A stretch of 63,510 nt of DNA, the filler included. It is 10 parts of 10 records of this genome, joined end to end, with 100 filler letters (N's around TTAATTAATTAA, not from the genome) between each part and the next. Parts side by side here need not be neighbours in the genome. Positions count along the whole stretch, not along the records: positions 35,638 to 43,859 come from SRR7504441_5503; 9 more parts are not named here. One strand, 5' to 3'. The position numbers were made by a program, and so were the translations under genes. The notes under the pieces were generated by a model that saw nothing but the letters and a program-made list of their open reading frames with translations, did no database searches and was not told where the DNA came from. Shown here piece by piece: positions 35,538 to 63,510 of this stretch. Each line of letters opens with the position of its first letter. Position 1 is the stretch's first letter.

Positions 35538-35637
35538 NNNNNNNNNNNNNNNNNNNNNNNNNNNNNNNNNNNNNNNNNNNNTTAATTAATTAANNNNNNN
35601 NNNNNNNNNNNNNNNNNNNNNNNNNNNNNNNNNNNNN
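35538..35637. other. Artificial contig linker
   Basis: N44-TTAATTAATTAA-N44. Confidence 0.98.
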
Positions 35638-36774
35638 GCGGAGGTGATCAAGGTGGAGAGCCCTCAGGGTTAGGGTTAGGGTTAGGGTTAGGTGGAGAGC
35701 CCTCAGGGGGACATGTGGCGCCAGGAGGCGATGCGGCTCACCCCGAACGAGCCGCACGGGCCGATGTTTGACAACGCCAACAGGGGCAAGAAGTCGGTGG
35801 TGCTCGACCTGAAGCGGCCAGACCAGCGGGAGCTGTTCGGACGGCTGCTCGACACGGCCGACGTGTTTGTGACCAACATCACCCGGCCGGCGCTCCGGCG
35901 ACTCGGACTGGACTACGAACAGCTGGCCCCGGCGCACCCGCGGCTGGTCTACGCCCACCTGACCGCCTGGGGCCGGACCGGACCGCAGGCGGCCGCCCCG
36001 GGGTACGACGTGGGCGCCTGGTGGGCCGCCTCCGGGATCATGGACTTTGTGCGCTCGGACGAGACGGCGGGTCCCCCGCGGTACATGGCCGGGATGGGTG
36101 ACCTGACCACCGCATCCCAGCTGGTGGCCGGGATCGCGCTCGGGCTGCTGCACCAGCACCGGACCGGCCGGGGCCAGCTGGTGGACGCCTGCTTGCTTCG
36201 GTCGGCCATGTACGTCCAGGGATGCGCGCTCACGATGGCAAGTGTGGCCCAAACCAAGTCCGGACTGCACGGGTTCGACCCGAACCGGCCCAGCCCGATC
36301 CGGGCCGACCGCAGCGGGGTGTACAACCCGGGGATGAACAGCTACCGGACCAAGGACGGCCGGTGGCTGATGCTGGTCGGAGTCCAGATGAACAGGCACT
36401 TGCCCAACACGCTAAAGGCGATTGGGCTGCCCGAGCTGATCCCCGAGCTAAAGCAGTACCCCAAGAACCGCCGGGAACTGATCGCCAAGATGGACCAGGC
36501 GTTCGCTCGTAAGACCGAGCCCGAGTGGCGCCGGGTGCTGGACGCGGCCGGAGTGTGGTACACCCCAGTGACTAAGATGGAGGACATGCTGGCTGATCCG
36601 CAGGCCGAGGCCTGTCGCGCGTTCGTCAAGGTGCCCGGTGTGGGCTCCAAGCTGGTCTCGTCGCCAGTGCTGTTCAGTGGTAGCCGGGACGCCCCGGTCA
36701 ACCGGGCGCCAACGCTGGGGGCGGACACCGAGGAGGTGCTGGCCCCGCTCCGAGGCCCACGCTCCAAGCTCTAG
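35638..36774 (+). CDS. CoA-transferase family III (CaiB/BaiF), 5' truncated; C-terminal PTS1 (SKL)
   Basis: AEVIKVESPQGD (after removing intron 35653-35691), NRGKKSVVLDLK, ADVFVTN, PGYD, GDL, RTGRGQLVD, APTLGADT; ends -RSKL. Confidence 0.92.
35653..35691 (+). repeat. 39-nt GT-AG intron containing (TTAGGG)n telomeric repeats, flanked by a 19-bp direct repeat
   Basis: AGGTGGAGAGCCCTCAGGG at 35651-35669 and 35690-35708, with TTAGGGTTAGGGTTAGGGTT between; in-frame TAG if unspliced. Confidence 0.85.
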
Positions 36775-36957: not shown

Positions 36958-38394
36958 ATGAAGGGCGTCTCTGGACTGGGGAGCGTTCTGAGGGCGGCAG
37001 GCGCGGTGGCAGCACCACCTGCCCAGCTGGCTAGGCCAGCGCGCCGGTTCGCCAGCCGCCGTCCGGCGACCGAGGCGATCCACGCAGGGGAGGACCACCG
37101 GGCGGGCCACAAGGCCAGTGCGCCGGACATCTGCGTCTCCACCACCTTCTCCGTCGACCGGCTTGTCTCCTTCGACGCGGCCGCCCAGCCCGACGAGGCG
37201 GCGTACGTGTACACTCGCTGGGGCAACCCGACGATCGCGGCGCTGGAGGCCAAGCTCTGCGCGCTGGAGGGGGCCGAGGCCGGGCTGGCATTCGCGAGTG
37301 GGATGGCCGCGAGCACCGCAGTGCTGCTCGGGGGGCTATCGGCGGGGGACCACTGCGTGGCCTCCGAGATCGCCTACCCGGGCACCGCCGAGCTGCTCCG
37401 GAACACGCTCCCTCGGCTGGGCATAGCGGTCAGCCTGGTGGACAGCTCGCGGCTGGACGAGGTGCAGGCAGCGCTCCGCCCGGAGACTAAGATGATCTGG
37501 GTCGAGACGCCGGCGAACCCGATCCTCCGGTTGACCGACATCGCCGGAGTGGCCCGGCTGGCCCCCCCGGGCTGTGCGGTTGCGGTGGACTCGACCTTTG
37601 GCACGCCGGTCGCGACTCGGCCGCTTGAGCTCGGGGCCGACCTCGTGGTGCACAGCCTGACCAAGTACATTGGCGGGCACGGGGACGCGCTCGGGGGCGC
37701 CGTGCTCGGGCGGAGCGGCGAGATGGTCCGGCGGCTGAGCGACGAGGCCTCGATCCATTTTGGGGCGACAATCTCAGTGAGTGTGCCAGGGGCGGGGGAG
37801 GGGCGAACCGGGGCAGCCAATCAACGCGTGGCTGATCGGGCGCGGGCTGGCTACTCTGCCGGTCCGGATGCGGTGAACCATGCGGCTGGCGGGCAGCAGG
37901 CGCGGCAGGGCACATGAGGAGAACGCGAAGAGGCTAAGTGGGTTCCTGGAGAGCCACCCGGCCGTGGAGAGGGTGCTGTACCCAGGGCTGGCCAGCCACC
38001 CGCAGCACCAGCTGGCCGCCAACCAGATGGACAATTATGGCGGAATGATTGCGTTCCAGGCAGCCGTGCCCGGGCTGAATATAGGACCGAGCGGGTGCAG
38101 GTGCGAGGGGACGCAGTCAAGCTGGCCGAGGCGATGATGGGTCCGGACGGGCTGCAGCTGATCCACTACGCGGTCTCGCTCGGGCACCACCGATCGCTGA
38201 TCTTCTTGATCGAGACCGCCGAGGTCATGCGCACCTCGTTCCGGTTAGAGGGCCAGGCCGAGATGAAGCGGTGCGAGGAGAGGTACAGGGCGGTCGCTGG
38301 CGATGGGGTGTTTCGGTTCTCGGTCGGGCTCGAGGACGCTGACGATTTGATCGAGGATTTGGGCTCGGTGCTCGACAAGCACACCGTTTCGTAG
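36958..38394 (+). CDS. Cys/Met metabolism PLP enzyme (methionine gamma-lyase / cystathionine gamma-synthase-like) with a mitochondrial-type presequence
   Basis: YTRWGNPT, FASGMAA, ETPANP, VDSTF, HSLTKYIGGHGD, YPGLASHP, VSLG, RFSVGLED; 3 short introns. Confidence 0.9.
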
Positions 38395-38588
38395 GATCTA
38401 CTCGTATTAATTAATTAAAATGGTGGACCCGCGAATGCTTCATGCACGTACGTATGTTAACAAGTCAATACTCTCCGCATCCGTGTTTTAATGGCGTTAC
38501 ATGTACGCAGTATGACATTGTACTGCGTAGCCGGGTTTACATGGCTTCGAACAAGTGCGGACAGTGTGGAGCTCGAGCCCTTCCTTCA

Positions 38589-39386: not shown

Positions 39387-42300
39387 ATGACCCGCGTCGA
39401 GCTGGGCGACTCGTCTGACGAGGACGAGTTCGACCGGGGCGACAGCGCCTCCGTGGCCACCGGAGTGCACGACGAGGACGACGAGTCGCAGTTCGGGGGC
39501 CCGGTCTATTTGACGCAACCGGCGCCCCCGAGGGCCGAGCCGGCCGCATGGTACAGCCAGCCCGAGCTCGAGCCGGTGCCGGAGGACGAGCTGCCGGACG
39601 CGCCGCTGCAGGCCAGCCCGCCAAAGCCGAATCGCGGACTGGTCTGGGAGAAGAAAGCCCGGCCCCCGCCCCGGCAGCGATGGGCGGCCAGCCCAGTGCA
39701 GCACTCCCCGGGCGTGTCGATGGCGCCGGCGGGCGAGCGGCGGGAGGTGGGCACCCAGTTCCCGGACGACAGGCCGGTCGAGGACGAGTTCGACGAGGAG
39801 GAGTTCCAGCCGGAGCCCGGTGCCCCCCGCCGGCTGCCCGCAGCTGACCCGGCGTGCAGTGATGGAGCGCCGCCCGCGCGCGGCCCGGCTGACTGTGCCG
39901 ACGGGGTCTGAGATGGACGGCGACCAGATCGACGAGCACAAGTTCTGGGGGTTTGATCTGATGTTCCAGTTCTCCTGGGAGCGGATGGAGGAGCTCTCCA
40001 ACGTGCGGCCGCCCCGCCGGGCCGGTGGCGACTGGGGCTGGTCGCAGGAGCGCGAGAACCGGGGCCGGTTGTATGAGAAGGGGCTGCTGGCGTGTGAGGA
40101 CGAGCTGGCTGACGAGCGGAAGCTGGCTGACATGAGCCCGCGATCCCGGCTGATTTGGGGCGATCTAGGCCCGGCCATGTTCGCGGCCCGGTGCGAGGCG
40201 GCCGGGCTGTTCACATCGGTCTCCTCCGACTGGACCTCGGTCTATGTGCGTGTTGGTGCCTGCCACGCCTGGCAACCCGAGCTGACCGGGCCCCAGGCGC
40301 GACCTGGGAGCGGTACGAGGAGGAGGCCGAGCGGATTGGGCTGCGCAAGCGGATCAAGCAAGAGTGCGCCCGGCCGGCGTGCGCCCGGGCGAGCCAGTGG
40401 ATTCAGGTGGATGAACCCCAAGATTGAAAGGCCGGAGCAGTTCAGAGAAGATGGGCTGGCCGACGAGGTGCGCGCCTGGCCGGCCTGCACGGACCAGGCC
40501 GGCAGGACCCGCTGCGGCCGCCGATGAGCGAGCGGGAGATGGCGATATACCTGCCGTTTGAGCGGGAGATCCGACAGTGCTTCGCGTACTCGCTGCTCTC
40601 TCCGAATTCTCTGTTCAGCTCGGCTGAGCGCCAGATCCTGAGCACCAGTATCCTGGAGGCCGGGATCGAAAAGGGCGGGGCCCAGATCAGCATCGAGAGC
40701 GACGTGACCAAGTGGGGCTACAACGACGGGGCCCCAATCTGCCTGCCGGATTACGAGGAACGCGACCGGCTCGAGCGGACCTGGTGCTCGGCCTTCCCGT
40801 TTGGGTCATACAGCGGGGTGTTCTGGCGGAAGCAGCCGTTACACGAGATCCGGGAGTACTTTGGGGAGGAGATCGCGCTGTACTATGCCTGGATGGACCA
40901 CTACATCATCTGGCTGGTCCCGCTCTCGATTGTCGGGGCGGTCTGCTGGATGGTGTACATGCTAGACCCTATCAACAAGCACCTGGAGAACGCGCTGGTG
41001 TTCTACGGCACGTTCGTCATCTTCTGGGGGGTGCTATTTCTCGAGTTCTGGAACCGGAAGGAAGCCGACCTAGTGTTTATGTGGGACTGCCTCGATCGTG
41101 AGCAGGGCTACAGGGAGCACTGGGACTTCCCGAACCGATCGTATCTGAAGAAGAATCCGATCACTCAGGAGTTTGAAAACTACTTTGACCCGCTCGAGCG
41201 GAACACCCGGATCAACTGGTCGATGGCAGTGATGTTCTTTGTGATGCTGATTGGGTTCGGGCTTAGCGTTGGCACGATCATCCTGGGCGGGTACCTGCAG
41301 GACAAGATCACGATCCACAAGGCGGTTGGCCCAGGGATCGCGGCCTTCTGCCTGGTGGTGATGCAGCAGACCACCACGCTTGCCTGGGAGAAGGTGTCCA
41401 CCTGGCTGACCGACTGGGAGACCCATCGGTACACAGTCGAGTACAACCAAGCGCTCGGGTTCAAGATGTTTGGGTACGAGATGGTCAATAAGTTCGGGGC
41501 CATCTTCTTCATCGCCTTCTTCAAAGGCCCGCTCGACGGCTGGATCGGGATCAAGGGCTGCCGGGACGTGAATGGCGAGCCGACCGGGAACAACTTTTGC
41601 GACTACGAGCTCATGATGCAGCTGCTGGTCGTGTTCATTGTGGACATTAGCGTCGGACAGGTTGGGGAGGTGCTCTACCCGTTGGTCAAGCTCAAGTGCA
41701 AGCACATGGAGATGGAACCAGGAGACAGCTCATTCGAGGAGAACTTCCTCAATCCGGTGGCCAGCGACGTAAAAGACGCCGAGATAGGGGTCAACATGAT
41801 CGAAATGAAGGACGTCCAGAACGTCAAGACCAAGGAGAGCCATCTGGAGGGGCTGGATGAGTTCGAGCTACAGGAGCGAGCCGAGCGAATGGTCGAATTT
41901 TACGCGCATCGGGCCATGCGCGGCGACCCGGGGGCGACCGAGCGGAACTGGATCATGGAGGACCAGGAGAACGAGGCAGAAAAGGACAACTTTTGGATGG
42001 ATGGCGGCCCGAACTTGGACTACATGGAAATGATCATCCAGTTCGGGTGACTCCTTCGAACGGACTTGTTTGATTGGCTCGGCAGGTTTGTGAGCCTGTT
42101 CTCGATGGGCTGCCCGCTCATTGTGTTCTTAGCGCTGGTCAACAACCTTATCGAGATCCGTACCGATTCTTTCACCATGAACAAAGCCATGCAGGTGCCC
42201 TCGTGTCCCCTGCCCTCTGATGCCATCGCCAACGCAGCGACCTCAGTTCCGCCGAGCAAAGAGCATCGGTACCTGGAAGGCGGCTCTCAACTTCATGGTG

Positions 42301-43015
42301 CCAGCCGGATGCGCAGGCGCAGGCTCACCCAAAGATTAGGTGTGGTCTGCCATCATCTTCAATGTGGTGCTCATCTTTTACTTCAACCAGTACAAGTCTG
42401 GCGACCCATGGTTCGACCGCACCGACAACCTGGCGCTGGTCGCGATCGTCGTGGCCGTGGAGCACCTGATCATTCTGTTGAAGGTGCGGCGTGCGCTCGG
42501 CGTGCGCATTGACACTCTGTGTGTGCCTGGCAGTTGGTGGCAGAGCACATGATCCCAGATCAGACGGAATGGCTGCAGCAGGCTGTCGAAGGGTCACCAT
42601 GCATTATTATTATCTTGCATTGGGCCCAGAGAAGACCCGGCTCCCCCGCTGCATCATATATACACAGCTGCGCTGGCGGCCGTCTGACCTGGGTCTGTGT
42701 TGCAGGAGACAGGCCGTGGAAAAGCATGTACACAAGAAGGCAATGAAGATTGCAGGTTGTCAGGCTGGGAAGACTCCAGAGTACCTAATGTGGGAGGCGG
42801 ATAGAAAGGACAAGATCCACAATAGCAACGCTGCCAAGAAGGGGAAAATCGAGACAGAATTCAAAAAGTACCCAGAGTTGCAGAAGATGAGGCTCGCTGT
42901 CAGATCCAAATACCAGCAGCAGCTGAAGGAGACCGAAGAGGCTGCTGTGGAGGAGATGGCGGAGGCAGAACGAGAGCGGCAACTCGAACAGGAGAGAGAC
43001 GATGCTGCGGACTAG
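39387..43015 (+). CDS. Anoctamin/TMEM16-family channel or scramblase
   Basis: QPLHEIREYFGEEIALYYAW, FLEFWNRK, LTDWETHR, DYMEMIIQFG, NNLIEIRTD, SIGTW, IPD. Confidence 0.93.
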
Positions 43016-43959: not shown

Positions 43960-43989
43960 TTCACGCTTTTCTTTTTTTTTCTGCTCAGC
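43960..43989 (+). repeat. Left copy of a 30-nt inverted terminal repeat, TTCACGCTTTTCTTTTTTTTTCTGCTCAGC
   Basis: Exact reverse complement of 47617-47646. Confidence 0.95.
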
Positions 43990-44013
43990 ACAAAAGTGCC
44001 CGGTGGGGTGGGT

Positions 44014-44982
44014 ATGGCCCCCGTTTCCGTGCTGCTGTCGCTGCTCAGCGCAGCCTGCGCTGTCGGTAGCCCGCAAGCGCCGTGCGAGCCCAAGTTCAAC
44101 ACCACCTGCGCCAGCACGGCCAGCTGCGCCAAGTCGGCGTACTCTGGCACTGGCATGGCCTGCTGTCCGCTGCCCAACGCTGTCGACTGCGAGACTCCGC
44201 TGGGCAGCTGCTGCCCCAAGGGTCACACCTGTGAAAAGACCGGCTCTGGCTGGGAGGTTGTGGTCAGCTGCAAGCCAGAGGGCGGCGGGGCTGCCGTCCC
44301 AGGCACGCCCGCCTGTAAGCCGGGAGCTACCAACCGGATGAGCAAGACCCGGAAGAACTGCCTTATCATCGGCGATTCTGTCTCGCTGGGCTACACTCCG
44401 TTCCTCGCCGCCGCGCTGGCTGCGGACTGTGTGGTGCAGCACGCGCCTAGCGGGGGGGATGGCGGTGCTGAGGAGACCGCCTACGGACTCGAGTGTCTGG
44501 GCTCGTTTCTCTCCAACCCGGACGGACAGGCCGTCCATCCGGAGCTGATCATGTTCAACTTTGGCCTGCACGATGGCCCATGCAACGGAGTCAACACAAC
44601 CATCCCCGGCGGTGCAGGCCCTAGCGCGGTCTACCAACCGGAGCTGACTCAGATCGCAGCGAAGCTGAAAGCCCATACAGCCGCCACTAAGGCCAAGCTC
44701 CTCTTCGCCTTGACCACTCCCTGGCTCTGCTCGGCCTCTACAGATGCACTGATCCAAAAGCTCAACGGCGAGGCCGCCGAGGTGATGAAGGCCGCCAACA
44801 TCCCCACGGTCGATTTGCACGCCGCCGTTGTAGGGAAATGTGGCACGGCCCCCGTGGCGGAGTGCTTCGCTGCAAAGTCGTGCTTTTGTCCGCACTGCCC
44901 GGGCGGCGGGAATGCAGGGGGCTACTCGTGGCTCGTGAACAATAGCTTAGCCCCAGCCATCCGCGGTCTGTTACGTACATAA
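44014..44982 (+). CDS. Secreted SGNH/GDSL hydrolase with an N-terminal granulin-like Cys domain
   Basis: Signal peptide; CCPLPNAVDC…CCPKGHTC; IIGDSVSLGY; FNFGLHD; CPHC in the block V position. Confidence 0.85.
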   Translation: MAPVSVLLSLLSAACAVGSPQAPCEPKFNTTCASTASCAKSAYSGTGMACCPLPNAVDCETPLGSCCPKGHTCEKTGSGWEVVVSCKPEGGGAAVPGTPACKPGATNRMSKTRKNCLIIGDSVSLGYTPFLAAALAADCVVQHAPSGGDGGAEETAYGLECLGSFLSNPDGQAVHPELIMFNFGLHDGPCNGVNTTIPGGAGPSAVYQPELTQIAAKLKAHTAATKAKLLFALTTPWLCSASTDALIQKLNGEAAEVMKAANIPTVDLHAAVVGKCGTAPVAECFAAKSCFCPHCPGGGNAGGYSWLVNNSLAPAIRGLLRT

Positions 44983-45180
44983 TATTCGTTTGATTCATTA
45001 AAAACTTCGACTCACTCCGTACTCGAACGTACTTCAGATTTCAGTTTAAGTACGAGTACGTATCGAGTGCGAATTCTCTTGCTTACTCGCATTACTCGTA
45101 CTTACTGTCAGTACTCGTACTTTAGTTACTGCTTGAGTACATTTAATTCGGCGTTTCAAGACCAAATGCGTTCTAAACAA

Positions 45181-47617
45181 TTAACTACAAGAGCAATGGC
45201 CGTCCAAGTCACAGGAGAGCATTGCAGCTCCGGCAATATCGATTACGCACTCGATCGGCGTGACGCTCAAGCAGCCATCGCTTGAAATGCCGACTTGAAC
45301 TCGCTCTCCTCGACTACCGAGCACTGCCACGCTTTTGAAGCGCGACGAGCCGCTGTGGCTCGACCAGTTGGCAAAGCGCTGGGGTGAGATCGCGATGATC
45401 TTATTGAGCTCTCCAACGAAGATCGGCCCCACTGCAACAGGCACCAGGGTCCACAGGTCGAACCCAATACAGTAGTCCTGGCCATAGCCCGACTTGCAGC
45501 TGGTTGGCCTTGCATTCACTGCGAATTCAAACGGGTGGTCGTTATTCACCGGCTTCATTTGACCGCTGTAGTACTCACGAGCGCAGAACTGCTCGGGCAA
45601 CGATTGCGCCTTCTGCAGCACTCTAAGGTCTGACATCGGAAGGGTGCGTGGCTTCGAGACGTTGGCGCCAAACAGCACAAAGCTGCCTGCCAGGCTGAGA
45701 GGCGCCGCCCACAGGTGCGCTGCCCCGAGGTCGTTATCAGCCAAGCCAGCCACGGCAGCAACAAAGCTTGAGTCGGTGTTGCGCGCTGGGCGAGTCGGTT
45801 TGAGTAGAGTACCGTCGGCCCGACACACCTGCATCAGCCGCGTCCTGTTCGCAAGCCCAATCCGATCTGCAAACCCGACAGGCCCCGCGAGCAGTGCTGA
45901 AACCACCGTCTGCAGCTCCGGGTCGGCTTCGGTCGCCGGACTCCAGTCGCTGCCCGGCTCATTAGTGACAGACCAGAACGAGTCCTTGAACGGCACCAGA
46001 CCGACTGACCAGTAGAGCAAGCTGGTCATCCCGGTGGAGCTCCACTGCTCGGAGTCGTCTGAGCGGCTTTGGCCATAGTCGTGACTGGCCCGGGCATGCG
46101 TCACACGCGGGAATGCAGCCGAATGGAGAATGTGCCTGGGCAGGGCCATGCAGTACTGAATCGTCACGTTCTCGGTCTCAGCGGCCTCGGCCATGGCTGC
46201 TAGCCAGGCCGCAGCCAGCCCAGGCTCTTGCTGCAGCGGGGTGCACGCCTCATACTGCCTTGCCAGGAAGTCTTGCTCATAGGTACCCATCCCGAGTCCG
46301 GCTTTGGCACGCGAGAAAATATGCTCAAAAAGCCTCCTATCCAAGCTCACAGCCACTCCGGAGCCTACTGTCCAGTTCAGCCCGGTTAGGTTGGACATGC
46401 CGGGCGCCCTGCCGGTGATGTAGTCGTTATCAGACTCAAACCATCGAGAGTGGGTGATCGTGGGCAGCCCCGACAGCCGGAGCCACGAGTCCGGCGGCCC
46501 GTTCACTTCCGGGCCCCCGAGAGTCGAAGGCAGCGGCTCCCATAGCTTGATCCCCTCCTGGGCTCCCTTATAGTACCACCACGAATCAAACTGCACCGCT
46601 CCCACCGGAATCCGACGCTCGGTGAACTCAGTTTGAAGCATCCTAAGTGTAGCACGGTAGCCGGTACCATTGAATGGCAGCGGCGGGATCACTTTCGGGC
46701 ACTCAGCTCTGCTGCAGCAGGTGCGGTTGCTCGGGCAGCTTCCGTTGGCAGTCCGGTAGTAGTAAAATCCACCGTTGTCCATATAGTACGACAACTGGCG
46801 GAGCCCAGGATCCCTCACTGCTCGATCCATCGAAGGACGGCTTTTGTGACCACCTGCAGCTCGCATTACAAAGTCGCCCCACAGCTCCATCGCGGCTGTC
46901 AGGCTGTCCCCCGCCACCACCAGCGTCTCGTGCACGTGCCCGGCCGGCACTGCCCTGAGCGTGCCCTGCAGCCCACAGCTAAAGTTCCCTCGCATCACCT
47001 GACTGGCCGTCTGACAGGCCGTGAAGAAATCTCGAAGCGGCGAGATCACCAGTGCCTTCCCGTCGTCTGCCACCAGCACCAGCGGCATCCCTGACCCGTC
47101 CGTATCCCCCCGCTTTCCCCGGGACGTGCCCCGCCGGTTCGCATCGTCGAGCCCGAAGGCGGTGCCGGCTCGCCACCGGAAAACCCTCGAGTTTTGGAGC
47201 TGGATCCCTTGGTACATGAGCACCGCCACGTCCCTGGCCAGCCGGCTGAATGACGGGAACCCACTTACCACTTCGTCAGTGCTGCCGTTCCGGTTGCGGG
47301 GCTCTAGCCCGGAGGGGAATCGCTGGATCAGCAGCTTGACCTCGGCATGCGCCGTGTACGACCGGACGGCGGTCTGCCAGCGCAACTGCCCGCCGGTCCA
47401 CTCCAGCCCACGCTCGGCGTACTGGCCACCCAGGCGGTCGTTCCCGGTCCGGACTGGCAGCTTTGTCGGGGAGAGCGCGGTGCAGCCGGTGGCGGCCAGG
47501 GCGGCGCAGTCGGAGGAGAACCAGCGGGCCTGGTGCCGGGCGGCGACGGTGTCGGCCCCGAGCCAAGGTTGGCCGTCCATGCTGAGCCAGAGCAGCTGAG
47601 AGGCAGTCCACACAGCG
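45181..47617 (-). CDS. Large putative glycoside hydrolase (GH27/GH36 clan-D-like TIM barrel); 5' exon missing
   Basis: 810-codon ORF; DNGGFYYY, QFDSWWY, YEQDFL, QYCM, RASHDY, PFKD, GPVGFAD, DGTLLKP. Confidence 0.65.
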
Positions 47618-47646
47618 CTGAGCAGAAAAAAAAAGAAAAGCGTGAA
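47617..47646 (-). repeat. Right copy of the 30-nt inverted terminal repeat
   Basis: GCTGAGCAGAAAAAAAAAGAAAAGCGTGAA. Confidence 0.95.
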
Positions 47647-54381: not shown

Positions 54382-54790
54382 CTAATCGGATAAACTATCG
54401 TCCTCGAGTTCCATGTAACAGGGATTGATGTAGTATCCTTGCTTCGTTATCGCCTGCACCGAAGGAGGTATGAAGCTCCCTGTTGCAAGGTAGGCGTCAG
54501 AGTCCATCAGAGCTGCGTTTCCAGACAGATAGTTCCCTGCACAGCAGCAAGCCTTACTGAAGGCAGCTGATAGCAACGAAAGGTTGCCAGGCACCTGATA
54601 GTAACAGCGTCTTGCACCTTAGAAAGGTTGAGCTTTCCAGCACAGATGTCTTTCCTTGCAGATAGCATCGCGCCAGCGACAGGGTCGTCGGGTAAGAAGG
54701 AGGGTTCTCACTGGCCCAAGAAGCAGGGAGACTTCCACTGATTCGCATACCCGATGATGTTCAGATGCACCTTTGGTCCATTTTAAGCTC
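54382..54790 (-). pseudogene. Degenerate leucine-rich-repeat gene fragment
   Basis: RISGSLP, LSLARCYLQG, LLLS|GNYLSG LRR patterns; frame break upstream, early stop, lower GC. Confidence 0.4.
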
Positions 54791-57969: not shown

Positions 57970-59183
57970 ATGAGCCGGGGCGGGGACCGTAGCCAGCCGC
58001 TCGAGCAGGAGGTGCTCTGCGTCGGGCAGCAGGTGCTCAAGATCAGCACCTGGACGCCTCCCGAGGAGGTGCTCTGCGTCGGGCTGGCCTGCGTCGACTT
58101 CGTTAACCTGGTCGAGAGCTATCCAGCCGAGGACTCTCTGGCCCGAGCCACCGAGCAGACGGTGCCCCCAGCCCCCAGGCCGACGCCCAGGCCCGCGGGC
58201 AGGTCCGGCGCGGTGGCAACGCCAGCAACACGGCCTGCGTTCTCGGCGGCCAGGGTGTCCAAGCCAGGCGCGGCGGAGGCCGGGCCGGGCTGACAGGGTG
58301 GCAGCTGGTGCGGCAGCCTCGGGAGCGGGCCGATGGCTGACCTGGTCCTGGCCGACCTCAAGCAGTTCGGAGTGCTGCCTGTCACTCCTGGCGGCCCGCA
58401 GCCGGTCGGGCAGCCCACGGCTCACATCGTGGCTAGCGCGGTAACCAGCCGAGCCGTTGGGGCCGCCGACTGAGCCGCGGCCAGAGCACCAAATCGCGCA
58501 CGGTGGTGCTGCACAACAGCCTGCCGGAGCTGCCGCCCCCGGTGATGGATTGGCTCGAGCTGGCCGGGCTTGCCTGGCTCCACATCGAGTGCCGGCCAAA
58601 CCTGCAGGCACTCGAGTCACTCATGCGCCGCGCAGCAGAGCACGGCGTGCCGGTGCCTGATCTCCGGCGGCGCGGGCCAACCGTCGGGCAGGTCTCGCTG
58701 GAGCTCGAGAAGCCACGGCCGGCCGATATCCGGCTGGCGAAGCACGCGGCGCTTGTGATGTTCTCTCAAGAGTTTTGCAAGGCGAGAGGATTCGAAGAGC
58801 CCGAAGCTTGCATCGCTGAGGCGTTCAAGAGCGGGGATCTGGCGCCCGGGACGATTGCGGTCTGCTCCCTGGGAGAGAAGGGCGCGATGGCCATGCGGGG
58901 AGAGGAAAAGTTTGAGAGCGGAGCGTTTGCTCCGGAGGCCGGGGTGGTGGACACTGTGGGTGCGGGCGATACTTTCAATGCCGGCCTGGTTCGACTGCTG
59001 GTGGAGGCCCGTCGCCTGGGCGTGAGGCTGGATAGCCATCCGATGGTGGTGGATGTTGCGCTCGGGTTTGCCTGCGAGCTTGCTGGACTGAAGGTTGGAA
59101 TGAACGGATTTGGTGGCTTGAAGGAGGCGAGTCTGCGGCTTGGGCTGCTCGACAAGGCCGTCTCCAAGCTGTCGAGGCCCTAA
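57970..59183 (+). CDS. Ketohexokinase-like PfkB sugar kinase
   Basis: VLCVGLACVD…YPAEDS, RRGGNASNTACVL, SRTVVLHN.LPEL, WLHIECR, SLELEKPR, VVDTVGAGDTFNAG. Confidence 0.88.
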
Positions 59184-61766: not shown

Positions 61767-63510
61767 ATGTCGCCAGCTGCAGAGATGCTCGCGCTGGTGC
61801 TTTTGGTCGTGCTGCCGGCGTGGGGCGAGGAATGGACCAATGTGGGCAGCACGCCCGGGTCGAACACCACCCACCATTGCTCCAACAACACGGCCTGGGG
61901 GCTAGACAAGCGGTGCTGGATCACCTACCGGCCGCCGAATATCATAGAGCCGGCTAAGCTAGTGATCTTCCTGCACGGTTATCAGCCAACAGAAGACGTC
62001 GGGCTTCTCAAGTACGACGACCTGCGCTACGCCGGCTGGCGGCAGATCGCCGACGAGGAAGGATTTGTGCTCGTCCAGCCCGGGGGGCGGCGGCTGACCG
62101 AGGACAACATGCTACGCGACGAGGACTTCGCGTATACGAAGGCAAACAACCCGGACGACCAGGCGCTGGAAGGGAGCGTAACGGAGATCACGAATGCGAG
62201 TCTCGACAGGGCGTATAACGGTTGGGACGCCGGCATGTGCTGCATGAGGTGCGAGAATACAGAAATCTACAATAACACCATGGGGGGGGACGGGGGAGGC
62301 GGTGAGGAGGGCAAAGACAACTGCGACGTCCAATTCGTGGCGCATGTGGCCGAACAGGTGGCTGCCGAGTTGTCCATCAAGGAGCTGTCTCGACACGTCT
62401 ACTGGGCCGGCCATTCGACAGGCTGCATGCTGGCACAGCGGGTGGCAGTCGTGCGGCCAGATATAGTGGCGGCTGTTGGCTGCCACAGCGGCCTCTTGGC
62501 ACTGTCACCGTGCGAACTTGCGTCTTTGGAGCAAGCCGTAAAAGCTGAGCGCAAATACAAGCCCAAGCCCGTGATCCTGGTGCATGGTAATGCTGACACC
62601 ATAGTGCCTTTCGGCACGCAGGACCCGGACGACAGATTCTGGGAAGTGACCTTGGATCTTCAAAAGCCTCCGATTCGGCTGATCCCGAGAAACAATACAT
62701 GTACGGACATCAGCTTGGAGAACAAAATCAAGTACGGCGCATTCGAGAACTTGCTCCGATGGAAAGAGCAGAACAAGTGTACGGGTCCGAGGGTGACCCA
62801 CGCCTGCGGGTCGATGGAAAGAGAAGAACAACTTTACAGCATTCACAGCTTCTATGGGTGCGGTTACGATAGCAGTGACGCATCCGATCAGGTCGCTGTT
62901 CGGCTGGTGGAAGTGAAGGGTGCTGGGCATGTCCCGTTCTCACGCAAATATTTACCTCTTCCCTATAATCTCATTCCGACCCCCTGGCTCGAGGGCTACA
63001 CAGGCTTGGATCTGTTCGTGGATCTGGATACCACCGACATGGTCTGGCAGTTCATGAAGACATGGTCCGGCAACGACACAGAGGCCAAAGCCAAAGACGC
63101 GTTCGAGAGCGCCACCTGTCCGACGCCGCCAACGTCGCGGCTGCCTGGATCGTCTCTCGAGCGGCGCTGGGATGCGGACTGGATAGCGATATTGGACGTG
63201 CTGCTGGGCGCCGTCCTGATCGTGAGCCTCGTCTGGATCACGCTGGATGCGGCTACTCCTGCCCCCACCAGAGGGTTTGAGGACGCGCCACAGGACACGC
63301 TACAGGACAGCGTCGACCATGTGTTCACCAAGCTGCTCGGGATAGGCAAGGTGAAGGTGTTCAAGCGGCGGAGTGATAGCGAGGTCATGACGATCCAGAC
63401 GCTGGCACGCAGCACCGCTGAGGCGTATCACATGCTCCAAGTGCTCCACGCCACCAATGGTAGCACTGTGACACACATGCTGGTCCAGCAGCTCCAGGCC
63501 ACCAACTACA
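61767..63510 (+). CDS. PHB-depolymerase/LpqC-like esterase with signal peptide, TM helix and cytoplasmic tail; runs off the window (absent from the ORF track)
   Basis: My translation: MSPAAEMLALVLLVVLPAWG…LVIFLHG…IADEEGFVLVQP…WDAGMCC…AGHSTGCMLA…HGNADTIVP…GAGH…WQFM…TM (IAILDVLLGAVLIVSLVWI); no stop to the window end. Confidence 0.85.
   Translation, partial: MSPAAEMLALVLLVVLPAWGEEWTNVGSTPGSNTTHHCSNNTAWGLDKRCWITYRPPNIIEPAKLVIFLHGYQPTEDVGLLKYDDLRYAGWRQIADEEGFVLVQPGGRRLTEDNMLRDEDFAYTKANNPDDQALEGSVTEITNASLDRAYNGWDAGMCCMRCENTEIYNNTMGGDGGGGEEGKDNCDVQFVAHVAEQVAAELSIKELSRHVYWAGHSTGCMLAQRVAVVRPDIVAAVGCHSGLLALSPCELASLEQAVKAERKYKPKPVILVHGNADTIVPFGTQDPDDRFWEVTLDLQKPPIRLIPRNNTCTDISLENKIKYGAFENLLRWKEQNKCTGPRVTHACGSMEREEQLYSIHSFYGCGYDSSDASDQVAVRLVEVKGAGHVPFSRKYLPLPYNLIPTPWLEGYTGLDLFVDLDTTDMVWQFMKTWSGNDTEAKAKDAFESATCPTPPTSRLPGSSLERRWDADWIAILDVLLGAVLIVSLVWITLDAATPAPTRGFEDAPQDTLQDSVDHVFTKLLGIGKVKVFKRRSDSEVMTIQTLARSTAEAYHMLQVLHATNGSTVTHMLVQQLQATNY

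Follow-up and report, generated by a model that had tools for sequence, protein, structure and literature searches.

Telomeric insertions and intron gain in other systems

In primates and rodents, short interstitial telomeric sequences have been described as insertions at repaired double-strand breaks (Nergadze et al. 2007, PMC2246262). According to the available part of that study, the break end was in register with the repeat at 67-80 % of the mammalian telomerase-type interstitial loci, versus less than 25 % expected, and loci carrying a target-site duplication formed a class of 6/130 in rodents and 4/25 in primates (PMC2246262).

Where spliceosomal introns come from is a long-standing question; few cases have been caught in the act, most of them transposon-like introners or break repair of the Daphnia type. 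Introner elements of marine protists, about 200 nt long and with a target-site duplication supplying one splice site, were reportedly described by Huff, Zilberman and Roy in 2016. In Daphnia, short direct repeats flank 43 % of the gained introns, which the accessible text of two papers ascribes to the repair of staggered double-strand breaks (PMC3443670, PMC3020277). In a further model, outlined in the accessible part of the first of these, an intron is created when an exonic segment with AGGT is duplicated in tandem (PMC3443670). Both halves of the route considered here are known, at least from the accessible portions of these sources: telomerase-made interstitial insertions, and intron gain via AGGT duplications or filler capture (PMC2246262, PMC3443670, PMC3020277). 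A full-text search, with most subscription journals outside its coverage, returned no literature linking the two, and the available portion of a 2012 review of intron-gain mechanisms has 0 occurrences of 'telomer' (PMC3443670).

A telomeric insert between two copies of a direct repeat

The window, i.e., the whole stretch of DNA analysed (63.5 kb), stems from an uncultured protist, marine as judged by matches to marine meta-omic runs, and is GC-rich (0.60-0.63). It consists of ten contigs of 3.6-9.8 kb tied by nine identical 100-nt joiners, each made up of 44 N, TTAATTAATTAA and another 44 N. The insert is located at the start of one of these contigs, in a CoA-transferase gene, where the following features are found:

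35538..35637, no strand: artificial joiner, one of nine identical joiners
35638..35650, + strand: contig opening, 13 nt of authentic upstream CoA-transferase coding sequence (translation; matches to P0001 and other homologues)
35651..35669, + strand: direct repeat copy 1, 19 nt, holding AG/GT and ending with AGGG in the telomeric register (sequence)
35653..35691, + strand: candidate 39-nt phase-0 intron (GTGGAG...GTTAG), the sole GT..AG register to excise precisely one repeat unit
35666..35692, + strand: perfect telomere-phase tract, 27 nt, with four GGG runs (Tandem Repeats Finder: 6-nt unit, 4.5 copies, 100 % matches)
35670..35689, + strand: inserted filler TTAGGGTTAGGGTTAGGGTT, 20 nt of TTAGGG repeats (3.3 units; sequence)
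35690..35708, + strand: direct repeat copy 2, opening with AGG in the register of the tract and running into the open reading frame (sequence)
35692..36774, + strand: rest of the family III CoA-transferase gene, 360 open codons, GC3 0.89, with SKL end and TAG stop (translation, Pfam, homologues)

The preliminary description of this DNA had reported that AGGTGGAGAGCCCTCAGGG occurs twice in the gene, at 35651-35669 and 35690-35708, with TTAGGG repeats in between. This was found to be correct, the two copies being 100 % identical. The end of copy 1 is in telomeric phase over 4 nt (AGGG), as had also been noted, and the same holds for the first 3 nt of copy 2 (AGG); the tract of 27 nt is composed of these 4 nt, the 20-nt filler and these 3 nt. 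It is not terminal: unique gene sequence lies on either side, and upstream this amounts to just 32 nt, up to the end of the contig. These 32 nt at the head of the contig are genuine, in-frame upstream gene sequence. The layout is that of the locus, 20 nt of telomeric repeat, and then the same locus resumed 19 nt back, which a simple chimera with one junction does not give. Chance is excluded as the source of repeat and tract. The number of occurrences of TTAGGGTTAGGG expected from 100 shuffles was 0.00, and exact direct repeats of at least 15 nt at a spacing of 25-80 nt numbered three in the window and 0 in each of 20 mononucleotide shuffles. The similar tracts elsewhere to which the preliminary description had looked did not turn up in the 63.5-kb window, which holds no second telomeric tract.

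Independent sequences from the environment were also searched. Three marine meta-omic runs contain 5-7 % of the sampled words of the window, and run X1 has an identical 233-nt piece at 35993-36225. Among the pieces listed for these runs, 35638-35992 is uncovered, and 35638-35700 was skipped as a repeat, by which the runs neither support nor oppose the insert. The metagenome scan for orthologous DNA gave one contig of 1304 nt at 68 % identity and one distant match, and no orthologous genomic DNA; exact-pattern scans of genome contigs and viral contigs gave 0 matches.

The interrupted gene and its homologues

The assignment of the gene to the CoA-transferases was upheld: it belongs to family III (PF02515, E 1.4e-72, with the match running from position 33 to the end of the 366-position profile). 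Its 5' part, the first 20 or so codons, is missing at the contig start, and tblastn across the window for this piece gave chance matches only, in a phosphatase gene. The 13 nt ahead of copy 1 encode the codons A, E, V and I plus the first base of K. Read without splicing, the frame does run into TAG as had been stated, giving AEVIKVESPQG, four TAG stops and then VESPQGDMW, with the 39-nt insert in frame (13 codons). Removal of the 39 nt restores the conserved reading exactly as in the homologues. All nine of the nine aligned homologues (42-76 % identical; best, P0001) pass through the site without an insert, and P0009, with 85 % identity across 199 residues, likewise has none. The homologues compared are proteins, mostly from transcript assemblies, so the comparison covers the mature message of the relatives, which is without the 13 codons, and does not extend to their DNA.

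Use of TAG as a sense codon was considered and rejected, since TAG (36772-74) terminates this very gene after a conserved SKL; with TAG being a true stop, read-through is no option. The SKL C-terminus (36763-36774) is shared with 5/9 aligned homologues. SKL is a type 1 peroxisomal targeting signal, on which basis the CoA-transferase is probably peroxisomal. The product of P0009, the closest relative with an N-terminus, finishes past GFDPNK in a tail without homology, at a point from which the window gene reads on. The tail may be unspliced sequence and could represent an intron that the window gene does not have, which hints that the P0009 record is genomic or unspliced.

The candidate intron and the local intron class

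GT35653..AG35691 is indeed the sole GT..AG register among the equivalent 39-nt deletions. That about 39 nt is a typical intron size in this DNA was borne out by 15 curated local GT-AG introns, whose length is 34-43 nt with a median of 40. An ORF-joining scan contributed eight of them, and seven were set by homology (anoctamin and Cys/Met-lyase genes; contig of the insert). The scan produced 28 rows, and 8 of the 11 rows of at most 43 nt were kept; the three others (26, 29 and 32 nt), which have 3-22 alternative registers each, were dropped. The 17 rows of 80-198 nt were left out; at least two of these consist of a pair of small introns with a mini-exon, and genuine longer introns may be among the rows, so that the class of 34-43 nt is real but not the whole distribution. 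Example introns are located at:

37777-37816
37873-37908
40256-40296
40468-40505
42047-42085
42195-42237
42298-42339
42491-42533

These local introns are extremely short and GC-rich, and many have a CTGAC/CTCAC-like motif 9-12 nt ahead of the CAG end.

The 5' splice site of the local introns is weak (GTG in 11/15, GTC in 3/15 and GTA in 1/15), and their 3' end is mostly CAG. In the candidate, the in-register repeat at the junctions measures 19 nt versus 0-5 nt in the 12 ordinary introns checked. Using a splice-site model that rests on just 15 introns, the candidate obtained a score of 0.2 bits, which was equalled or beaten by 175 of 367 exonic decoys, these being GT..AG units of 34-43 nt within 11.2 kb of long exons. 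A score below that of the candidate was seen for 1/15 real introns, and 4/15 did not exceed 2.3 bits (both leave-one-out). The candidate has a G at intron position +4, which none of the 15 real introns has. The splice-site motifs do not bear out the intron claim of the preliminary description: they are unlike those of the local introns, and the score is about the median of the decoys. As 367 GT..AG units go unspliced in exons, size and terminal dinucleotides alone make no intron here. The low score counts against efficient splicing, with the provisos that the model is small and that a new-born intron need not score well. An RNA G-quadruplex is predicted for the tract, and the candidate intron alone has a predicted minimum free energy of -14.4 kcal/mol. 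The homology-supported intron 37777-37816 has a stronger, four-layer predicted G-quadruplex (-32.0), and a G-quadruplex would therefore be no bar to splicing.

Likeness to known systems and proposed origin

The locus resembles the mammalian interstitial telomeric insertions, as far as the available text on these goes, in having a few exact TTAGGG units internally, in its register and in its target duplication; an empty site in relatives, a further trait of these insertions, is suggested here by proteins. It is unlike them in being situated in a coding exon of a protist, in comprising just 20 nt, and in having a long duplication of 19 nt. Since this duplication carries AG/GT, the scar has intron termini, which sets it further apart from the mammalian insertions. 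With the break-repair introns of Daphnia, in the form in which the accessible text presents them, it shares direct repeats over both splice sites, filler in between, probable recency and lineage specificity; the filler is, however, telomeric here instead of mitochondrial or random DNA, and the intron is a candidate only. As in the model of AGGT tandem duplication, again going by the available text, the duplicated AGGT provides the donor as well as the acceptor, and the coding sequence is exactly restored once the unit is taken out; the duplication is not purely tandem, since foreign telomeric repeats make up 20 of the 39 nt. The likeness to introners consists of an insertion plus target duplication that give a potentially spliceable unit in a marine protist. 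Unlike introners, the insert has neither a transposon body nor terminal inverted repeats nor a copy family in the 63.5-kb window, and it measures 39 nt.

The most likely reading of the locus, in which we place moderate confidence, is that the family III CoA-transferase gene bears, in a coding exon, the scar of a real and very recent insertion of 39 bp. It could have arisen as follows. After a staggered break, both ends would have carried the same 16-19 nt. The 3' end of the top strand, ...CTCAGGG, would then have paired with a telomeric template, and a reverse transcriptase, most simply telomerase, would have added about 20-23 nt of TTAGGG repeats. The new end would have re-annealed to the other end via AGG, and fill-in synthesis would have yielded the target-site duplication. 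Because the duplicated segment holds AG/GTG, the resulting scar is a 39-nt phase-0 GT..AG unit, in the length class of the local introns. The 4-nt and 3-nt junctions in telomere register are, in the available part of the mammalian study, the signature of telomerase-made interstitial telomeric insertions (PMC2246262). The sequence itself, the in-phase junctions, the local intron size class and the lack of the insert in homologues are observed; that a break occurred, that telomerase took part and that the insertion is recent we infer.

That the insertion is a real DNA event is likely. If it is, a reverse transcriptase with a telomeric template very probably made it, and the chances that the candidate intron is spliced at least partly are about even. 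The complete account of the preliminary description, in which the insertion is real, of the telomerase type and spliced, is accordingly doubtful as a whole: the insert, the restoration of the frame, the size class, the register and the in-phase junctions of this telomerase-assisted intron gain all stood, and the decoy-like splice-site motifs speak against it. We offer it as a tentative proposal that telomerase-primed repair has just made a new spliceosomal intron here, the filler coming from the enzyme and both splice sites from the duplication, and that, as the second structure described below suggests, small break-repair insertions might recurrently supply intron-sized units in this genome. 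Should the junctions be real and the unit spliced, two known processes would be joined in a new way, a reverse transcriptase that every eukaryote already has would be added to the list of intron sources, and the case would show how readily a scar becomes an intron in a genome with introns of about 40 nt. Should the junctions not be borne out, it would usefully caution that striking biology can be simulated by draft-contig ends. The case concerns a single locus, situated at the edge of a contig.

A second repeat-filler-repeat structure

A structure of comparable make-up was found by a repeat search in the interior of contig 9, about 2.2 kb from its start:

58007..58084, + strand: perfect 21-nt direct repeat (58007-27 and 58064-84) with a 36-nt filler, in exon 1 of a ketohexokinase-like gene

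From copy 2 onward, this region matches human ketohexokinase chains over their residues 4-33, at E values of about 5e-4 to 9e-4. The 21-nt repeat contains AG/GT, and the unit GT58012..AG58068 is 57 nt long, in frame and free of stops. It has a splice-site score of 9.1 bits, with 11/367 decoys scoring as high, and exceeds the local 34-43 nt class in length; its translation would merely lengthen the N-terminus. The filler, which is unique in the window, has a hairpin stem of 7 nt with arms that copy the flank in both orientations, a composition that we take to resemble templated end-joining insertions. The structure may be an N-terminal extension, a nascent intron or another young scar left by break repair. 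As it lies in the interior of a contig, it indicates that mutations of the repeat-filler-repeat type occur in this genome away from contig edges, which raises the odds that the telomeric insert is real. The repeat families at 62757, 55601 and 3513 were also considered as scars and were rejected, being diverged in-frame coding repeats, as were the 9-nt repeats at 54578 and 24966, which are non-coding or in-frame.

The contig edge and alternative explanations

The contig starts at 35638, 13 nt before copy 1. The preliminary description had allowed for a chimeric or misassembled contig edge, and this applies in part, as the feature does lie 13 nt from the contig start. Only about 1-2 % of the window is as near a contig end as the insert, so insert and edge are linked and their co-location is no accident. 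Possibly the structure itself broke the assembly, for instance as an insertion polymorphism or a variable repeat in a mixed population; possibly, also, the contig end admitted an aberrant read. Three of the six families of short-range direct repeats in the window are located within 112 nt of a contig end (35651, 55601 and the start of contig 3). The other two of these, one a diverged coding repeat (88 % identity) and one in non-coding tandem-repeat DNA, look natural and are compatible with breaks at variable repeats as much as with artefacts. The clustering of repeats at contig ends fits both kinds of link.

Were the second link to hold, the terminal 52 nt of the contig would derive from one or a few aberrant reads, used where coverage ended, and the gene would be uninterrupted in the population; the source could be a chimera, a template switch during amplification, or somatic repair in a few cells. 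We consider this possible but rather unlikely. It would account for the position of the insert, for contigs so short that coverage was probably low, and for the direct repeats near contig ends, and the perfect 30-nt terminal inverted repeat of contig 7, which has no transposase match, likewise hints at graph-related end effects. Nor did the junctions have an independent match in the metagenome, genome-contig and viral-contig scans or among the pieces listed for the marine runs. For a chimera made in vitro, however, two switches at a distance of 20 nt would be required, each of them in telomere register, plus a return to the same locus exactly 19 nt upstream, and a ligation chimera gives one junction where the insert has two. 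We know of no library process that adds telomeric TTAGGG hexamers. The natural look of the other two end-proximal repeats and the interior position of the structure at 58007-58084 weigh against an artefact as well.

An insertion that is real at the DNA level may, on the other hand, go unspliced, in which case the locus, cut by the four in-frame TAG codons, would be a young pseudogene or else an allele that is null or polymorphic. This alternative, to which we give only limited credence, is nested within the reading as a real insertion and differs from it in consequence only. It gains from TAG being the gene's own stop after the conserved SKL, from the decoy-like score, from the many GT..AG units of intron size left in long exons, and from the perfect repeats, which leave too little time for selection to show. 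Yet the rest of the gene is intact over its 360 open codons, with the GC3 of 0.89 and 76-85 % identity to relatives, and 4/15 real introns score as low as 2.3 bits or less. That the assembled path carries the insert would be odd for a deleterious allele, a weak argument. The filler could also be the product of a tail-only retrotransposition, in which a target-primed reverse transcriptase inserted a repeat tail and made the target-site duplication of 16-19 nt, the tail coming from the RNA of a non-LTR or Penelope-like element that ends in telomere-like repeats, or from a copied telomeric-repeat RNA. A duplication of this size is long for end joining and lies within the range of LINE-type insertions, and the filler adjoins the downstream copy as a 3' tail would. 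The tract is not accompanied by retroelement sequence, though, a second such insertion was not seen in the window, and the 4-nt register on the upstream side is what priming by telomerase predicts; we deem this origin improbable.

Host lineage and telomere repeat

Direct signs of the host's telomere or lineage in the window are scant: none of its contig ends has telomeric repeats, and relics of the dinoflagellate spliced leader amounted to one match with 3 mismatches versus 0.56 expected, which is uninformative. The organism is without a near relative among those sequenced. The best named relatives of the CoA-transferase are from dinoflagellates (Gymnodinium smaydae, 67 %; Prorocentrum cordatum, 62 %), and those of KBL (glycine C-acetyltransferase), which is encoded on another contig, are from haptophytes (Haptolina brevifila, 90 %; Coccolithus braarudii, 86 %). 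The telomere repeat is given, in the accessible part of the source, as TTAGGG for haptophytes and TTTAGGG for dinoflagellates (PMC3622300). The lineage evidence from these proteins is ambiguous, dividing between the two groups, and this counts against the telomerase reading, whose key premise is a host repeat of TTAGGG.

Other contig ends in the window

At the start of contig 3 (19773-19823), two perfect tandem duplications lie next to each other in non-coding DNA: an 11-nt unit present twice and a 17-nt repeat with 19-nt spacing. Contig 7 (43960-47646, 3687 nt) carries at its two termini 30-nt stretches that are perfectly reverse-complementary, and ORFs run off both ends. It has a GDSL-lipase-like ORF and an ORF of 821 residues that is without a Pfam match; no transposase was found on this contig. 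Its ends could be either a common 5' motif or repeat where the assembly broke, or an end artefact. An assembler k of 33, by which the contig of the insert would start exactly at the branch between insert and no insert, was considered and rejected: the start of contig 3 does not fit it, and the 30-nt end repeat of contig 7 implies a different k. The sequence TTAATTAATTAA of the joiners also occurs once naturally, at 38407-38418, 13 nt past the stop of the Cys/Met-lyase gene, and a copy of this linker motif is thus not always a contig joint.
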